From an uncultured Acidobacteriota bacterium (GTDB lineage Bacteria > Acidobacteriota > Blastocatellia > RBC074), in NCBI GenBank assembly GCA_963796275.1, contig CAWCKY010000004.1, forward strand, positions 1,344,001 to 1,408,000: a stretch of DNA of 64,000 nt, read 5' to 3'. Position numbers and translations under genes: made by a program. Shown here in pieces: positions 45,390 through 55,923 of this stretch. Under the pieces are notes generated by a model. It worked only from the letters and a program-made list of their open reading frames with translations. It did not search any database and had not been told where the DNA came from. Position 1 is the first letter of the stretch. Each line of letters starts with the position of its first letter.

Positions 45390-45456
45390 CGGAGGTAGAA
45401 GAATTCGAACCTTCGGTAGAGGTTTAGTCCCCACGATGGTTTAGCAAACCGCCGCC
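45390..45456 (-). repeat. Degenerate copy of the 3' two-thirds of tRNA-Ser(GCT) (att-like direct repeat)
   Basis: cggaggtagaagaattcgaaccttcggtagaggtttagtccccacgatggtttagcaaaccgccgcc aligns to 51364-51431 with about 7 transitions and 1 indel, in the same orientation. Confidence 0.9.
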
Positions 45457-45806
45457 CGGTCGCATAAAGTACTACGATGGTTTAGCAAACCGCCGCCCTA
45501 TCACGTGAAGTACTATGGCGAGGATGACCATATAGAACAGCTCCGAGCCGTAGGTCATGATCGGTCATTAGCTAAGGCTCGCTCTCGAACAAGCTCGCGC
45601 CCGCGCCGGAGACGCTTCCCGAGAAATCAAGCTGCAACCGAGTCTCATTGATTACACTCTCGATCCGTAGATGGAGAGTTATCTCCATCTATAGTTGTAC
45701 CCGTCGGTCATCTCAAAGTATCAATCAAATCACCTCGCTGGGTAGATGGCGTGAGGCAGCCTTGATGGTACCCTCCTCGATGTACCATAGAAAGAGACTG
45801 CATCTC

Positions 45807-46037
45807 TTAGCCTTTGTTCAAGCGTCGTGTACTTACGGCATGGGCCTGGTATTTACGGGCGACTTGCGCCATTCCCAGTCCGCCGTCCAGTTCGGCGAGG
45901 ACTTTCAATTCGAACTCTTTGGTGAACTGCCATCGCTGGAGGCCTGTTTTCTTCTTGAGACGCATTGTTAAGTGTCTTTCCGCTGTCGTCAGCGAATTTA
46001 CAAATTAACTTTTTGTCTCATCTAGGTTCACCTCACA
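45807..46037 (-). mobile_element. IS3-family remnant (truncated OrfA HTH plus probable left end)
   Basis: 45965->45807 reads MRLKKKTGLQRWQFTKEFELKVLAELDGGLGMAQVARKYQ...stop, resembling HTH_Tnp_1. Upstream TGTGAGGTGAACCTAGATGAGACA resembles an IS3-type TG-starting IR. Confidence 0.65.
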
Positions 46038-46103
46038 ACAACCACCACAATCCTGGGCATGCGCCTTGTGTCCTAGACGTGTGCCTCGGGAGGGAAAGGG
46101 TAT

Positions 46104-47684
46104 ATGAATACACTCAACAAACTTACGTTGAATTGCGTCTTATTGGCGTTCTTGATAATGGACTTGACTGTCTCTACACGAGCGCAAAATATCGCGGGGG
46201 CGAACTCTAGCCTCCAGGAAGCAATGCAGGAGTCTCCGGATCGTCAGCCTCCGGGCGGGACCGATACGACGCAGCGACTCCGCTTTTGGAACGAGATCGC
46301 CCTGAAAGCCAATGGGCGTGATCACGCGCGCCTGGCCCCCCTGAGACCGAATCAACCGGGCCCGCTCCGGACTGCCCGCGCGTTCTCCATCGTGCATATC
46401 GCGATATTCGACGCATACAATGCGATCGTGGGAGGTTACGAGAGCTACACCGGCTTTACCCCGATCTTGGGAGGGAGCGCCACTAATCTTGAGGAGGAGG
46501 ATATCGATATAGAAGGCGCCAAAAGGCGCGCATCGGTAGATGCGGCGATTATCCAGGCGGCCGCCACTACGCTGAAGGCTCTCTATCCATCCCAGGCGAC
46601 GGATATCGAAAACGTTCGGCGGGTAGACCTCCTCTCGATTCCCGCTGGGTCGGCGAAAAACAACGGGATAGCAATCGGACAGCAGGCGGCGAATGCGATT
46701 TTGTCGCGCAGGAGCAATGACGGCTCTCAGCATAACGAGCCGGTTTACGGCGTCGGATATATCCCAAATCCGGCCTTCGGCAAGTGGCGTCGGGATCCGG
46801 TCTCAACTACGCCGGAGAACCCCGGACTCGCTCTCGGGGCGTTCTGGAGCGCGCTGGTTCAGCCTTTTGTCATACTTTCCGCCGGCCAGTTCAAGCCTGT
46901 TCCACCGCCCCCCCTGTCGAGCTTGGCTTACGCTTTGGCGTTCACTGAGGTGAAACTGTTAGGCGGCGACCCCGAACAAGGCACGCCGACGCAGCGGACC
47001 GCGGACCAGACGATCGCCGGAATCTACTGGGGTTACGACGGAACGCCGTTCGTAGGCACACCGAACCGGCTCTACAATCAAATTGCGGTGCATATCGCCA
47101 CCCTGAAGGGAACCAGAGGCATCAGGCTCGCGCGGCTGTTGGCTCTGGTGAATGTGGCGATGGCCGACGCCGGCCTTGCTTGCTGGGAGGCGAAGTATCG
47201 CGAGGAATTCTGGCGGCCGATTACCGGCATCCGGCAAGGCAATAACGACCCCAACCCACTCACCATCAGAGATCCGAACTTCATTCCGCTCGGCTCGCCG
47301 GCCAGCAACACCAACGGGCCGAATTTCACGCCGCCCTTCCCGGCGTATACGTCCGGCCACGCGACCTTCGGGGGCGCTCTCTTCCAGGCGCTGCGCAGAT
47401 TTTACCGGACCGATGCGATCCCCTTCAGCTTCATTTCGGACGAGTTCAACGGGGTGACGCGGGACAATCAGGGTAATGTGCGCCCAATTGTTCTGCGTAG
47501 TTTCGCCACGCTTACAGCGGCCGAAGAAGAGAACGGCCAGAGCCGCATCTATCTCGGCGTCCACTGGCGCTTTGATAAGACCGAAGGGATCGAACAAGGC
47601 AGACGGGTGGGTGATTACGTCTTCAACAATTCCTTCCGGAAACGGACTTTCGGCGGGGCACTTATCCCCGATGACAACGAGTAA
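46104..47684 (+). CDS. Vanadium-dependent haloperoxidase (PAP2 superfamily), secreted
   Basis: Vanadate-binding motifs KYREEFWRP, PPFPAYTSGH and SRIYLGVHWRFD; WNEIAL and AIFDAYN in the N-region; signal peptide; GGGAGG upstream. Confidence 0.88.
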   Translation: MNTLNKLTLNCVLLAFLIMDLTVSTRAQNIAGANSSLQEAMQESPDRQPPGGTDTTQRLRFWNEIALKANGRDHARLAPLRPNQPGPLRTARAFSIVHIAIFDAYNAIVGGYESYTGFTPILGGSATNLEEEDIDIEGAKRRASVDAAIIQAAATTLKALYPSQATDIENVRRVDLLSIPAGSAKNNGIAIGQQAANAILSRRSNDGSQHNEPVYGVGYIPNPAFGKWRRDPVSTTPENPGLALGAFWSALVQPFVILSAGQFKPVPPPPLSSLAYALAFTEVKLLGGDPEQGTPTQRTADQTIAGIYWGYDGTPFVGTPNRLYNQIAVHIATLKGTRGIRLARLLALVNVAMADAGLACWEAKYREEFWRPITGIRQGNNDPNPLTIRDPNFIPLGSPASNTNGPNFTPPFPAYTSGHATFGGALFQALRRFYRTDAIPFSFISDEFNGVTRDNQGNVRPIVLRSFATLTAAEEENGQSRIYLGVHWRFDKTEGIEQGRRVGDYVFNNSFRKRTFGGALIPDDNE

Positions 47685-47707
47685 TACTCGATTAGATAAA
47701 GAGCGCC

Positions 47708-48270
47708 GTGGATGTCGCAGTAAGGCAAGCCAGTTGGATCGCCGAGCAGCTGACGGCAGAGACGAGCCCCGAGATAGCTCTGGACGGCAGCTATGGCAAT
47801 CTCAAATTCTTTCGTGGGATACGCGGCGTGAGAAGTTTTGCGACGGCCCGAATGCGAAATGATAGGGTGCTCTACCAAATCCCGCAGACACCCGCTGAAG
47901 GCGAACCGATGAAGCCTGGACGTCCACCGAAATATGGCCAGGAATTCCGCTTCGCTGACCCCCAGACTTGGCCGACACCGGATGAAGTCCTCGAGTTTGA
48001 AAACGCGCAATATGGGCGTGTCCGTCTGCAATTGTGGTCAACCTTACGATTCCGGACGAAAAAGAATGAGATTGTTGATATCCCCGCCGTTGTCCGCTCG
48101 CAGATTCATTTGGAGAGGGACCAGCCGCCCGCACCGCATTGGTACGGAGTACATAATGGGACGACAGAAGAGACCACTCTGGGTCGCGTCTTTGAGTGCA
48201 TCACGCATCGTTGGCCGATAGAGCCCGCCAACCGATTTCGCAAAGAAAGACTCTACGCCGAGCTGCCGAA
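47708..48270 (+). pseudogene. IS701-like DDE transposase internal fragment
   Basis: LDGSYGN..F, RMRNDRVLY, GRPPKYG..F..DPQTW and RWPIEPANRFRK; the N- and C-termini are missing. Confidence 0.75.
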
Positions 48271-48727
48271 TGTAGTCGGTAAAATAGGGAGTGGGAATGG
48301 AGAGTCGTGGCTTTTCTCCACTCTCCACTTCCTATTTCCCATTTTTCTGTGCCACATCTTTCTGGTCGACAAACACTTTGGATAAATTATCAGGGCAATC
48401 CGTCGGCGAGATACCCGGCGGAGGGATCGATCTCTTTCCCGCTTCCGCCTTTCTCATTCCTATCACACTAATCCCTCGGTATAGTCCGAGGGCGCTCGTT
48501 ACTGCTCGAAGCTGACAAGCGCTGATTCGCTCACTTTGTAGGCGCATCTTCCGTCGCGTCACGTTTGGCGGCTTCGGCCTTGCGTCTTTGATCCAAGCAT
48601 CGTAGCCTGAATAGGATCAACAAACTGATTAATCACTGTCGCTTTCACGCCACTTAATTCTCTCTGCCGAGATTACGCCACTGATTAGTCCCTAACACCG
48701 GGTAATTCCACTCGGAAGAATTCAAAC

Positions 48728-49087
48728 ATGGAGCACCAGCGCCTCGTGCTGAAGCGGATGCTCTATCTAGACAATAACGCAAAAGGGGAGTTTATGAAGA
48801 ACCAACCGGGAATGGCCGTGGGACCAACTGTGGTAACGGCGCAGGATGATGAATGGGGGCGTCAGAGACGCGAAGAACTACAAAAGGAGGCCGCAGACTT
48901 TGAGGCTCAACTTGCCGCACTGGAGCAGGAATACGCCCGCTCTTCCGCGATAGCCAAAATACTCGGCCGAGCCTTAGGATTCGGGGCCGCCGGCAAGCTG
49001 GAGCGGGCCCGATTCAAGGTAAGTTACAAGCGGGAGCAGTTAGCTGAATTCGAGTCCCTGCATCCCGACGCGCGCACAAAACGGTAA
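48728..49087 (+). CDS. Hypothetical coiled-coil protein
   Basis: 119 aa ORF with helical composition; alternative start ATG 48794 has a GGGGAG RBS. Confidence 0.5.
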   Translation: MEHQRLVLKRMLYLDNNAKGEFMKNQPGMAVGPTVVTAQDDEWGRQRREELQKEAADFEAQLAALEQEYARSSAIAKILGRALGFGAAGKLERARFKVSYKREQLAEFESLHPDARTKR

Positions 49088-49130
49088 TTTCGTGATTGTA
49101 AACTGAGATCGGCGACGTTATTATCGCTAC

Positions 49131-49601
49131 TCAGCCTTTATGCCCGCGGCGGGTCAATTCTTGGCGCGCGAGCCTTCTGACCTGGGAACAATCCATTATC
49201 CAAGAGGCTGCATTTGTCGCTCCGGAGAGCCAGTTCGCGCCTACCCTGCGCACATAATTCCCACTTACATCACGGAGCGATGCCGCCTCCTGTACATCTT
49301 TAGAGCCGACATTGGCCGCGACCCGAACGAGCACCTTTTCCAGCGCGCCGACGGCGGCTTTCGCGATGGCATAGTGAGAGCTACCTTCGATCAGGTTGAT
49401 CAGCGGTTTGACAGCTTGCGCGTCGCCGATATCGCCGAGCACATGCGCCGCGTCCTTCCGCGCCAGATGAGATTCGTCAACGAGCGATGCCAGCAAGGCA
49501 GCCAGCGCCCGTGGATTTCGTGATCTGCTCAACCCTTTGATGGCGCGCCGTCGCGTTTGAACGTTGCTTGACTTCAATCGTCGTAAGTTCCACCACAACA
49601 T
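49131..49601 (-). CDS. HEAT-repeat (PBS lyase-like) protein
   Basis: RRRAIKGL, RKDAAHVLGDIGDAQAVKPLINL and AAVGALEK; GGGGAG RBS. Confidence 0.8.
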   Translation of the reverse strand: MLWWNLRRLKSSNVQTRRRAIKGLSRSRNPRALAALLASLVDESHLARKDAAHVLGDIGDAQAVKPLINLIEGSSHYAIAKAAVGALEKVLVRVAANVGSKDVQEAASLRDVSGNYVRRVGANWLSGATNAASWIMDCSQVRRLARQELTRRGHKG

Positions 49602-49619
49602 AGCTCCCCTTTTTTTGGC

Positions 49620-49859
49620 TCAATCCGGTGTCGGCCAAGTTTCGCTCATCACGAGCACTCGCTTGAGTTCCTTCCCTGCGATACCAAAAAACGACGCCAT
49701 CTGTTTCAGTTGCTCTCGCCCGGTATATTCCGCCGGCGTTGAACAAAACCGCTCGATCCCGGGGGTGAAATCCACACATCTCATGCTCTTCGGCTTGTTG
49801 TGTCCTCTGGAACAATCACCATTCGCCTGCTGGAGCACACAAAATTCACACAGCTTCAT
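49620..49859 (-). CDS. Small Cys-rich hypothetical protein
   Basis: MKLCEFC...C...H...C...FC; AAGGCGG RBS-like site before ATG 49859; ends 18 bp before the HEAT gene. Confidence 0.65.
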   Translation of the reverse strand: MKLCEFCVLQQANGDCSRGHNKPKSMRCVDFTPGIERFCSTPAEYTGREQLKQMASFFGIAGKELKRVLVMSETWPTPD

Positions 49860-49917
49860 AACCGCCTTATTCCGTATTTTGATCGAGCTTAAAATCAATC
49901 ACAATTGATTCGGGAGT

Positions 49918-50112
49918 TCATAAGCCGTTGTTGACCGGGACCATCGAAATGCTCGCAATTAGCCCGATTATTCTACCCTTAGCTGATACTGTCAGAATCT
50001 CTCCATTCTTTGCTTGAAAGCGCCAACGAAACTCGAGCTTTTCGTTTTTGTTAGATTCGAACTGCGCCACCCTCGGGCGCATCGGGTAAGGCTCAGAGAT
50101 CCGCGTGATCAC
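49918..50112 (-). pseudogene. YegP/DUF1508-like small protein or fragment
   Basis: FE...EFRWRFQAKNGEILTVS resembles the DUF1508 motif; the C-terminal half looks degenerate. Confidence 0.5.
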
Positions 50113-50154
50113 TGAACGTTCACTTCCTGCGCCACTAGTTTGGACAAGAGAGAG

Positions 50155-50478
50155 TTAGTCGCTGGGTCGTCCGGCAGATAACACCCTTGAGACAGATAGT
50201 TGATTGGCCCCTTCTCGGTTGACCTCTACGCCATCATTCCCGCCGGCATCTCGATTGTCGCGCTCACTTTTCAATTCCGGGGTGGTTATGAATTCGAAAC
50301 TTATCAGCCCGCGATCGACCTCTTCGAGCGCGATGCGCGTCGCCCTCGTATTTGCAATTCGAATAAGCGGTCGTGCGCCCTTGTGAATCTGTACGGCGCG
50401 CTGGGCCGCAATCAATACCTTGAGAAACCTGTTATCACTTGTGACATTATTCATTGTATTAGTCTGTGTTGCTTTCAT
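50155..50478 (-). CDS. rpoZ: RNA polymerase omega subunit-like protein (paralog outside the usual gmk-rpoZ locus)
   Basis: DNRFLKVLIAAQRAVQIHKGARPLI...RATRIALEEVDRGLI matches the omega consensus NRY.LV..AA.RA.Q...G...KP..IAL.E...G.I. Confidence 0.78.
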   Translation of the reverse strand: MKATQTNTMNNVTSDNRFLKVLIAAQRAVQIHKGARPLIRIANTRATRIALEEVDRGLISFEFITTPELKSERDNRDAGGNDGVEVNREGANQLSVSRVLSAGRPSD

Positions 50479-50702
50479 ATCGATCAATAAACATCGTACT
50501 CGAAGCGAAGCTGGAAACCGCCGCCGGCTACGAGGCGGTGTTCTAGCCATTCGGGCCGAGCCTTGGGATGATGGATAAATACCTCGTTCCCGCGCTCAAT
50601 ATCGCTCGGTCTCCTCCCTCGACATTCGAGCTAACAAATCGAGGTAAACCCTGAATCATCGTTGGCCGATGAATTTGACATGTGCGCGCCGTCATCACAT
50701 TC

Positions 50703-50954
50703 CTAATCTCTCGGCTTAGCCTCGTCTACTTTGAGCGTTTTTCCATTAAGGCTATGACCGTTGAATTTCTCTTTGACTGCGTTAGCCGCTTCTCTAGAGT
50801 TCATTTCAACGAAACCAAAGCCCTTTGATCGTCCTGTCTCTCGGCTGGAGATCACCTGACACGATTCCACCACCCCGACGGCGCTGAACAGATCGCGGAT
50901 TTCCGTACTGGTGGTCGCCTCCGCGAGGTTACCGACAAATAATTTAACTGACAT
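50703..50954 (-). CDS. RRM-domain RNA-binding protein (Rbp type)
   Basis: RNP2 LFVGNL, RNP1 KGFGFVEM and C-terminal LKVDEAKPR. Confidence 0.95.
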   Translation of the reverse strand: MSVKLFVGNLAEATTSTEIRDLFSAVGVVESCQVISSRETGRSKGFGFVEMNSREAANAVKEKFNGHSLNGKTLKVDEAKPRD

Positions 50955-51151
50955 AAGTTATAGACCTTCTTTCTTGAATGGTTGGAGGCAGGACGAATGG
51001 TTCGTAAGAATACCTACAGAGAGGAGAGACCATCCCTAAAAACTTTCTGAAGATTTCCAACAGATATTTGGAAGGTGAGCTGTGTATTTCAGTAATCTGG
51101 AAGATTCCAGATGAACTGATGAAGAGAGTGAGCTAGGCTCAATTCTCATCC

Positions 51152-51180
51152 ACACTACGCTGGGCAGGTAGCGTTGTCAA
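51152..51180 (-). promoter_or_regulatory. Sigma70-type promoter for the RRM gene (about 190 nt leader)
   Basis: TTGACA-17 nt-TAGTGT on the minus strand. Confidence 0.5.
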
Positions 51181-51362
51181 CCTCAGGCGCCTATAAAGTT
51201 TTGCTGGAAGTCCAATCAACAAGAATCACATTACTCCAATGACAGAAACGCTGGTTCGGTCGCGCAAGCACCTAACCTTTTTGTTCGCAATTTGATAATA
51301 AGAATACCCGGAAGATTGGGTAATTTGTAGAACTAAATTTAGGGTGGAACTTAATGAAAAAG

Positions 51363-51454
<92 letters not shown>

Positions 51455-55861: not shown

Positions 55862-55923
55862 TTCAGTTTTCAGTTTTTAGTTTTTAGTTGGGACATCAAA
55901 TCTGAAACTGAAAACTAAAAACT
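55862..55923. repeat. Inverted heptamer-repeat hairpin (TTTCAGT/TTTTAGT vs ACTGAAA/ACTAAAA)
   Basis: ttcagtt ttcagtt tttagtt tttagtt ... ctgaaactgaaaactaaaaact, right after the TPR stop codon. Confidence 0.7.

Follow-up and report, generated by a model that had tools for sequence, protein, structure and literature searches.

A second gene for the omega subunit (RpoZ) of RNA polymerase (RNAP) was identified on the minus strand of a 64,000-nt window from the genome of an uncultured bacterium of the class Blastocatellia (Acidobacteriota). The gene, here called omega2, is a genuine second omega gene, a true paralogue of the rpoZ located in the ordinary gmk-linked locus of the same genome, and it lies among a recurring set of neighbouring genes referred to below as the module. 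Of the core subunits of bacterial RNAP, omega is understood least, and the roles proposed for it, beta-prime folding, core assembly, sigma competition and sensing of guanosine tetraphosphate (ppGpp), are still debated. The explanation that we favor, at about an even chance, is that omega2 is a stress-linked alternative omega that is used when the module is on.

According to this explanation, omega2 would keep the beta-prime-binding fold and would occupy the omega site on RNAP once the module is activated, the probable trigger being stress of the cold, drying or dormancy type. Together with the linked chaperonin it would then help beta-prime to fold and the core to assemble, and it might also shift the sigma preference of the polymerase; omega2 may build an alternative form of RNAP. 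The module operons would be driven by a shared promoter/leader, and the trimmed 2.65-kb module of the window genome, next to tRNA-Ser, would have been acquired from another Blastocatellia lineage. An alternative omega is favored because omega and chaperonin paralogues adjoin one another under a leader that is shared with RNA-binding, translation-initiation and anti-sigma-type genes.

Coordinates without a prefix refer to the window, L numbers denote loci, G numbers genomes and C numbers contigs. An extra omega is a PF01192 match outside the gmk-linked locus.

Identification of omega2 as an omega paralogue

The omega2 open reading frame (ORF) spans 50155..50478 on the minus strand (107 aa) and its frame is open back to an ATG at 50550. 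An earlier reading of this DNA, made from the sequence only, had placed the start at 50478. That ATG is not conserved in the five closest orthologues, while all five retain the ATG at 50454 (MNNV/MKNV), so the likely product has 99 aa and corresponds to 50155..50454. The omega-like core proposed in the sequence-only reading was confirmed. The motifs quoted there are present and the protein matches PF01192 (RNA_pol_Rpb6) with 42.3 bits (cut-off 26, E 7.8e-11) over profile positions 7-53 of 53, which is far beyond chance. A profile of 11 extra omegas was colinear with residues 13-68 of E. coli omega (E 2e-12), with a single one-residue gap, and matched 26 distinct omega sequences in the PDB. The alignment indicates that the beta-prime-binding N-terminal region of the solved omegas is covered colinearly by the extras.

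The C-terminal tail of omega2, about 42 aa, is common only to its closest relatives. The AlphaFold2 model of omega2 alone, calculated with an 11-row alignment, was of low confidence (mean pLDDT 62, pTM 0.26) and had helices at residues 17-32 and 48-55 and no secondary structure past residue 60, with a pLDDT of 49-61 in the tail. A tail of the size first described (~40 aa) is real, and the disorder proposed for it would be compatible with the low-confidence model.

In the window genome, with 9.46 Mb on 7 contigs, exactly two loci score over the PF01192 cut-off. The ordinary rpoZ is located at C3:292418-292558 in the gene order yicC-gmk-rpoZ-coaBC, on another contig than omega2, and its product shares 50% identity with omega2 over 62 aa. 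None of gmk, coaBC and spoT was found among the neighbors of omega2 in the gene scan of the window. Thus, both the existence of an extra copy in addition to a gmk-linked rpoZ and the lack of the usual neighbors were as the sequence-only reading had them.

Distribution and phylogeny

Among 41 related genomes, extra omegas above the cut-off occurred only in the family of the window genome (10 of 25 genomes, including this one), and one further genome had a second match below the cut-off. Every multi-copy genome had one gmk-linked copy, with the remaining copies elsewhere. In a maximum-likelihood tree of 42 rows, from which duplicate rows (the same place fetched twice) had been dropped, the 11 extras were separated from the 31 canonical copies by one branch (support 98/95) and nested among the canonical omegas of their own family.

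The scan of a species-level genome collection with the alignment of the extras gave 206 relatives. The best 80 of the 206 loci were kept and, sorted by their neighbors, comprised 41 canonical and 39 extra copies. The titles of these 80 were Blastocatellia or Acidobacteriota metagenome-assembled genomes, nine Heliomicrobium or Heliobacteriaceae records and one Ectothiorhodospiraceae record. A pooled tree of 122 rows (108 distinct) contained 42 extras and 65 canonical copies. The 42 extras formed one set together with a long-branch row, L146 (support 97), and when L146 was left out they formed a single clade apart from the 65 canonical copies (support 98, FastTree). The tree of both copies that had been proposed as a check separates them once L146 is left out. 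The inner branching is mostly unresolved because the trees rest on just 69 alignment columns.

Two or three PF01192 matches were present in 28 of the 61 family genomes with a completeness of at least 90%, and the multi-copy pattern follows genera: 12/12 in g15, 6/6 in g2, 4/5 in g6, and 2/3, 1/3, 1/3 and 1/2 in others, against 0/16 in g12, 0/6 in g8 and 0/1 in each of four genera. An even sample of the phylum had two matches in 6 of 201 genomes, two of them from this family, three from a second Blastocatellia family and one from another class. The three second-family extras (L151-L153) lie near radical-SAM or STAS genes and have K or L where the own-family extras have Q. The counts include the unpublished genomes G004, G105, G129 and G220, on which none of the conclusions hinges. 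A third match in G024 (G024:C179, 31.8 bits, at a contig end) had no tblastn match and is in no tree. The closest relatives of omega2 are all from Blastocatellia, and the omega2 clade appears to have arisen inside this class and to have been retained in many, not all, of its genera.

Three observations were made in passing. The Heliomicrobium or Heliobacteriaceae titles belong to L101, L104, L109, L118, L119, L125, L126, L142 and L143; all of these except L143 are canonical loci, with yicC, gmk and coaBC 54-74% identical to those of the window genome, and the taxon labels look doubtful. Some Blastocatellia carry two extra omegas, each with its own module variant: L069 and L072 are about 20 kb apart on one contig, and a B12-radical-SAM gene follows L072. 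In G005, a 92%-complete genome, the sole PF01192 match (G005:C17:38040-38514) is directly upstream of a homologue of hyp92, a module gene described below; this means either that the assembly lacks the canonical copy or that the genes are arranged differently in G005.

Residue differences and constraint

Nine core positions are invariant across both the 42 extras and the 65 canonical copies, and five positions differ from canonical to extra: S to N, I to V, K/R to Q, S to A and V to I. The Q in place of K/R was considered as a mark exclusive to the extras and rejected, as the gmk-linked L149 (G236) has Q and L151-L153 have K or L. The replacement of KP by RA noted in the sequence-only reading is present in omega2, but it is a tendency of the clade rather than a fixed feature, with R in 27 and A in 29 of the 42 extras, compared to K in 65 and P in 38 of the 65 canonical copies. 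The ratio of non-synonymous to synonymous divergence (dN/dS) of the omega2 core (55 codons) was 0.19-0.29 against five orthologues; for canonical omega in the same genomes it was 0.09-0.34.

The conserved neighborhood

The neighbors of the extra omegas were surveyed by tblastn within about 5 kb, with the window neighbors and those of the other extra loci as queries, and families were assigned by Pfam and NCBIfam. At least one module gene was found at 34 of the 39 extra loci and at none of the 41 canonical loci. The families, with the number of extra loci that have them (0/41 canonical loci in every case), are:

GroEL paralogue: near 18/39
hyp92, small Cys-rich protein: near 18/39
RRM protein: near 14/39
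STAS protein: near 12/39
hyp119: near 7/39
B12-binding radical-SAM/DUF4070 protein: near 6/39, and 7 distant
IF-1-like protein: near 6/39
protein of two sigma-region-4-like HTH domains: near 5/39

The order of the module genes differs between genomes, a pattern typical of functional linkage rather than of frozen synteny. The IF-1-like protein scored 100.3 bits on TIGR00008 (cut-off 61.15). It was observed separately that an IF-1-like gene lies beside omega2 at L035:4323-4550, L076, L091, L092, L127, L137 and L141, and that the single IF-1 match of the window genome is only 55% identical to the omega2-linked protein.

In the window, the module and its surroundings consist of the following features.

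51362..51454, minus strand: tRNA-Ser(GCT), 3' end facing the module (ARAGORN; Rfam RF00005, 59.6 bits)
51066..51192, minus strand: promoter-like box (TTGACA, 17 nt, TAGTGT) and conserved leader of ~75 nt, upstream of the RRM gene
50703..50954, minus strand: RRM-type RNA-binding protein, 83 aa, first gene of the putative operon (PF00076, 79.8 bits)
50505..50537, minus strand: remnant (~33 nt) of the 3' end of a STAS gene (anti-sigma-antagonist type), a deletion scar
50155..50454, minus strand: omega2, extra RNAP omega (RpoZ) paralogue, 99 aa, conserved ATG at 50454
49918..50112, minus strand: hyp64, small ORF, 64 aa, weakly DUF1508/HVO_2922-like; homologue in L069, L070 and L071
49620..49898, minus strand: hyp92, small Cys-rich protein, 80-85% identical in L067-L071
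49131..49601, minus strand: HEAT-repeat protein, 156 aa (PF13646, 61.3 bits); homologue in L067, L071 and L127
48728..49087, plus strand: hyp119, conserved hypothetical protein, 119 aa, convergent to the operon, 70-76% identical in L067, L070 and L071
47708..48385, plus strand: DDE_5 transposase-like ORF (PF13546, 39.5 bits, profile positions 182-253 of 272 only)
45515..51361: candidate integrated islet, 5.85 kb, mosaic, between tRNA-Ser and its degenerate copy
45390..45514, minus strand: degenerate direct copy of tRNA-Ser, from the anticodon stem to the 3' end, with a 41-nt tandem duplication

The loci L067-L071 are five loci in other Blastocatellia genomes. The RRM protein is 88-90% identical to its homologue in L067, L069 and L070. 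The hyp64 matches are below the cut-offs (PF07411, E 0.0088; NF041908, E 7.6e-5). The most conserved partner of omega2 is hyp92, which matched no Pfam family and for which the protein atlas gave only unnamed Acidobacteriota clusters. Strict co-occurrence of hyp92 and omega2 was considered and rejected, since hyp92 occurs in 45 of the 61 family genomes, including 14 of the 16 genomes of g12, a genus without an extra omega. The last gene of the region common to the window, L067, L070 and L071 is hyp119, which gave 8 tblastn segments at 7 places in its own genome.

The window genome also has a sister cluster at C4:503-530 kb (503000-530000; L161, L162) that contains no omega. Its genes encode three RRM proteins, two B12-radical-SAM proteins, two CarD proteins, FtsH, a fatty-acid desaturase, GroEL, three Crp/cNMP-type regulators, a STAS protein, a DEAD-box helicase, hyp92 and hyp119. 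In cyanobacteria and E. coli, the genes for RRM proteins, DEAD-box helicases, desaturases and IF-1 are well-known members of the low-temperature gene sets.

A shared promoter-like box and leader

The ~125 nt that precede the RRM gene of the window are found again in its own genome and in relatives. In an alignment of 18 copies, TTGACA was present in 16; a variable -10-like box follows after about 17 nt, and next comes a leader of about 75 nt, parts of which hardly vary. The leader is directly upstream of omega2 in L035, from a same-genus genome (5120-5198), and in L042 (7193-7261, 6137-6220); it precedes STAS-omega2 in L068 (4328-4456) and RRM genes in the window and elsewhere. Four strong and three weak copies were found in the window genome, all at module clusters, including C4:511898-512030 and C4:525037-525336. 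The leader is common to the RRM, omega2, STAS, HTH and CarD/FtsH operons of the module.

The leader matched no Rfam family at E values up to 1. RNAalifold predicted 13 base pairs, none with a compensatory change, so any RNA structure of the leader is putative. The conserved stretch could be a regulatory element and is a candidate new cis-regulatory element of Blastocatellia. A single transcript that comprises leader, RRM gene, omega2, hyp64, hyp92 and HEAT gene would be plausible, since no intrinsic terminator was predicted on the minus strand between 51192 and 49131.

Deletion, candidate tRNA islet and probable transfer

The module of the window, 48579..51228 (2.65 kb), aligns at the DNA level with L067-L071 (75-91%), intergenic parts included, and the homology ends at both edges, the left edge being 48579. 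Compared to these loci, the window is without 1.3-2.1 kb between the RRM gene and omega2, where GroEL and STAS genes are located. The alignment jumps from 50570 to 50537 in the window, against 784 to 2069 in L067 and 2770 to 4913 in L069. At 85-90%, the STAS remnant at the scar matches the 3' ends of other STAS genes of the same genome and of those in L068 and L072.

The degenerate tRNA-Ser copy (repeat families D1/D2) is 86% identical over 43 nt and 63% identical over 41 nt, and was not called a tRNA by ARAGORN. The islet between the two copies contains a vanadium-chloroperoxidase/PAP2-like gene, the DDE_5 transposase-like ORF and the module. The DDE_5-like ORF is just outside the shared module, and contigs C4 and C7 have three further copies of it (87% aa identity). 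In G001, tRNA-Ser and the genes of the right flank are on separate contigs and arranged differently, and the left ~3 kb of the islet had no DNA match in G001, G002, G275 and G276. An IS3-type fragment read by eye at 45810-45965 was rejected, having no Pfam match at E 0.01 and a single genomic copy. A tblastn search with omega2 (E 1e-3) against 72,556 plasmid and 50,697 phage records gave no match. The sequence-only reading had described omega2 as carried on a tRNA island; the tRNA-Ser adjacency and a partial direct repeat were found, but not an integrase.

The GC content is 0.45-0.51 over about 49.6-51.7 kb and 0.55-0.61 in the flanks. Synonymous divergence (dS) between the window genome and the five L067-L071 genomes was 1.49-3.15 for yicC, gmk and coaBC (one value saturated), 0.65-1.22 for canonical omega and 0.28-0.85, mostly 0.35-0.5, for the module genes. 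Among the five genomes themselves it was 0.25-0.68 for housekeeping genes and 0.13-0.65 for the module; one outlying RRM pair with a dS of 2.3 is probably not orthologous. Against two same-genus genomes, module-type genes had a dS of 0.98-2.7. Since the dS of the module is far below that of the housekeeping genes in the same genome pairs, transfer of the module within the class is indicated. The simplest reading of the divergence is that the window module most likely came, apparently not long ago, from within or near the L067-L071 lineage. Signs of foreign origin, the dS contrast and the GC dip, were found for the 2.65-kb module only. The proposal that omega2 had moved horizontally was thus borne out as regards movement and not as regards an unrelated donor, because the clade lies within the Blastocatellia omegas.

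Modelling of beta-prime binding

The only rpoC of the window genome (C6:1266086-1270106) is split over many reading frames in the assembly, probably by assembly indel errors, and caution is called for with single-base details elsewhere in this genome. The beta-prime of a relative, G275, the genome that holds L067, was therefore used. Omega2 with its alignment was folded together with residues 330-720, 880-1000 and 1160-1400 of this intact 1443-aa protein. The score was 0.54 (runs 0.52-0.56) against 0.01 for the best control, a verdict of weak support, with a partner pLDDT of at least 52 and with at least 38% of the contacts in agreement between runs. The score dropped to 0.01 once residues 330-720 were replaced. 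In the calibration, the mark was reached by 58 of 80 solved complexes and by 2 of 110 mismatches; scores of 0.60 or less at the mark were obtained for just 7 of the 80 solved complexes and for both of the mismatches.

Omega and beta-prime are a textbook pair whose complexes have been solved many times, so the pass may reflect the likeness of omega2 to omega and not its binding. The modelling with beta-prime suggested at the outset gave a score in the weak band, with fragments of a relative's protein and for a familiar pair.

Weighing of the explanations

Several observations count against a stress-linked alternative omega: 1) omega2 scored 22.1 bits on TIGR00690, the NCBIfam rpoZ equivalog, just below the cut-off of 23.6, so that only the PF01192 part of the two profile checks came out positive; 2) at one position the omega2 of the window alone has V, with K/R in 41 of the 41 other extras and K in all 65 canonical copies; 3) the dN/dS of the tail is 0.38-1.58 over all pairs, near-neutral; 4) non-synonymous evolution is 3-5 times faster in omega2 than in canonical omega (dN 0.14-0.17 and 0.03-0.06, respectively, within the L067-L071 lineage); 5) GroEL and STAS have been deleted from the window module; 6) some genera have hyp92 but no omega2, and the module is therefore not dependent on omega2; 7) the stress trigger is proposed on the basis of cold-shock gene sets of other bacteria; 8) the fold score is in the weak band and was obtained with a relative's fragmented beta-prime for a textbook pair; 9) no integrase was found in the ORFs of 45.6-51.4 kb, where the Pfam scan gave only the DDE_5-like fragment; 10) no clean empty site was found in the same-genus genomes; and 11) the low dS of the module could come in part from the codon bias of expressed genes. 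Scores on the equivalog models of other omegas and of RpoK were far under their cut-offs, and the narrow miss on TIGR00690 fits a diverged paralogue.

A wider reading, which we consider unlikely, is that the clusters encode a second, stress-dedicated expression and protein-quality set under one leader, in which omega2 and the chaperonin would assemble a distinct RNAP isoform, and that this cassette can be passed between lineages. The members of such a set would be omega2, the extra CarD, the IF-1-like protein, the protein with two sigma-region-4-like HTH domains, the GroEL and FtsH paralogues, the RRM proteins and the DEAD-box helicase. If true, these would be the first alternative omega subunits that define polymerase forms in bacteria.

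It is also possible, though unlikely, that omega2 in the window is a decaying duplicate, the relic of an imported and truncated module that is no longer a polymerase subunit here, even if the family works elsewhere. Such weight as this explanation has is owed to the V substitution, the lost GroEL and STAS genes directly upstream of omega2 and the trimmed islet, with a transposase-like ORF and a broken border flanking the module. No strong ribosome-binding site was seen before the conserved ATG either, but an obvious Shine-Dalgarno sequence is likewise missing in the close orthologues, L070 excepted. Moreover, the omega2 frame is intact and colinear with its orthologues to its end, the dN/dS of the core (0.19-0.29) does not suit a relic, and the leader, like the RRM gene and the genes further downstream, is intact.

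An omega-fold protein that acts off the polymerase, as a cofactor or client adaptor of the GroEL paralogue or as a decoy that titrates an omega partner, is rather improbable. The five systematic differences from canonical omega, the faster evolution, the narrow miss on the rpoZ equivalog and the tight linkage to a chaperonin and uncharacterized small proteins would all suit such a role. However, the whole beta-prime-binding region aligns to the solved omegas with one single-residue gap, the nine invariant core positions are shared, and the fold with beta-prime fragments scored 0.54 against 0.01 or less for the controls, weak support that possibly reflects likeness.

A lone foreign omega brought from an unrelated donor by a mobile tRNA island to act as a global transcription switch, as the sequence-only reading had it, is very improbable: the tRNA-Ser adjacency, the partial tRNA repeat, the low dS to another lineage and the GC dip agree with it, but its relatives are all from Blastocatellia, its old, lineage-specific clade of 42 members nests among the omegas of its own family and is present in 28 of 61 family genomes, there is no integrase and no phage or plasmid match, and the setting is a conserved module with at least one partner at 34 of 39 extra loci, so that the unrelated donor is largely refuted.

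Relation to known systems

Omega2 resembles canonical RpoZ in fold family, invariant core residues and similar size. It differs in its location outside yicC-gmk-rpoZ-coaBC, its own clade, the five group-specific substitutions (including Q for K/R), its faster evolution, its score below the equivalog cut-off and its linkage to chaperone, RNA-binding and regulator genes.

According to passages of PMC7700224, E. coli RNAP without omega co-purifies with GroEL and loses activity without it, and omega binds the N- and C-terminal parts of beta-prime and prevents beta-prime aggregation. The abstract of PMC4227741 describes a heat-sensitive cyanobacterial rpoZ mutant and, together with that of PMC3985657, an effect of omega on sigma recruitment. 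The relationship between omega and GroEL in E. coli has a parallel in the 18 of 39 omega2 loci where both partner types are encoded side by side. In E. coli, GroEL replaces a missing omega, whereas at the omega2 loci both are extra paralogues that appear to be co-expressed, and in the window the GroEL gene has been deleted.

NusG/RfaH (PMC7593976), the alternative sigma factors and the CarD copies are likewise cases of a general component duplicated into a condition- or locus-specific version. The sister cluster of the window genome, with two CarD proteins, FtsH, GroEL and Crp-type regulators, adds to the likeness to specialised paralogues. The islet is like the tRNA-targeted genomic islands in its adjacency to a tRNA 3' end, a partial repeat on the far side and a divergence that suggests import; it is unlike them in having no integrase, in its size of only 5.85 kb, in being mosaic and in that no empty site was found.

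No description of an omega paralogue family, of a specialised omega-core paralogue or of the module was found in the full-text literature searches made. The extras would amount to a family of alternative omegas that occurs naturally, is conserved in many genomes and is genetically tied to the chaperonin that stands in for omega in E. coli, as well as to RNA-binding, translation-initiation and anti-sigma-type genes. Such a family would offer a comparative system for asking what omega does and whether the exchange of a core subunit serves regulation, and the transfer indicated here suggests that small cassettes can carry a polymerase-subunit gene from one lineage to another.

An additional repeat in the window

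A short element at 55862-55923, downstream of a TPR gene, recurs dozens of times, in either orientation, in the same-genus genome G002 (~76-83% identity) and looks like a palindromic repeat of the repetitive extragenic palindromic (REP) or miniature inverted-repeat transposable element (MITE) type.

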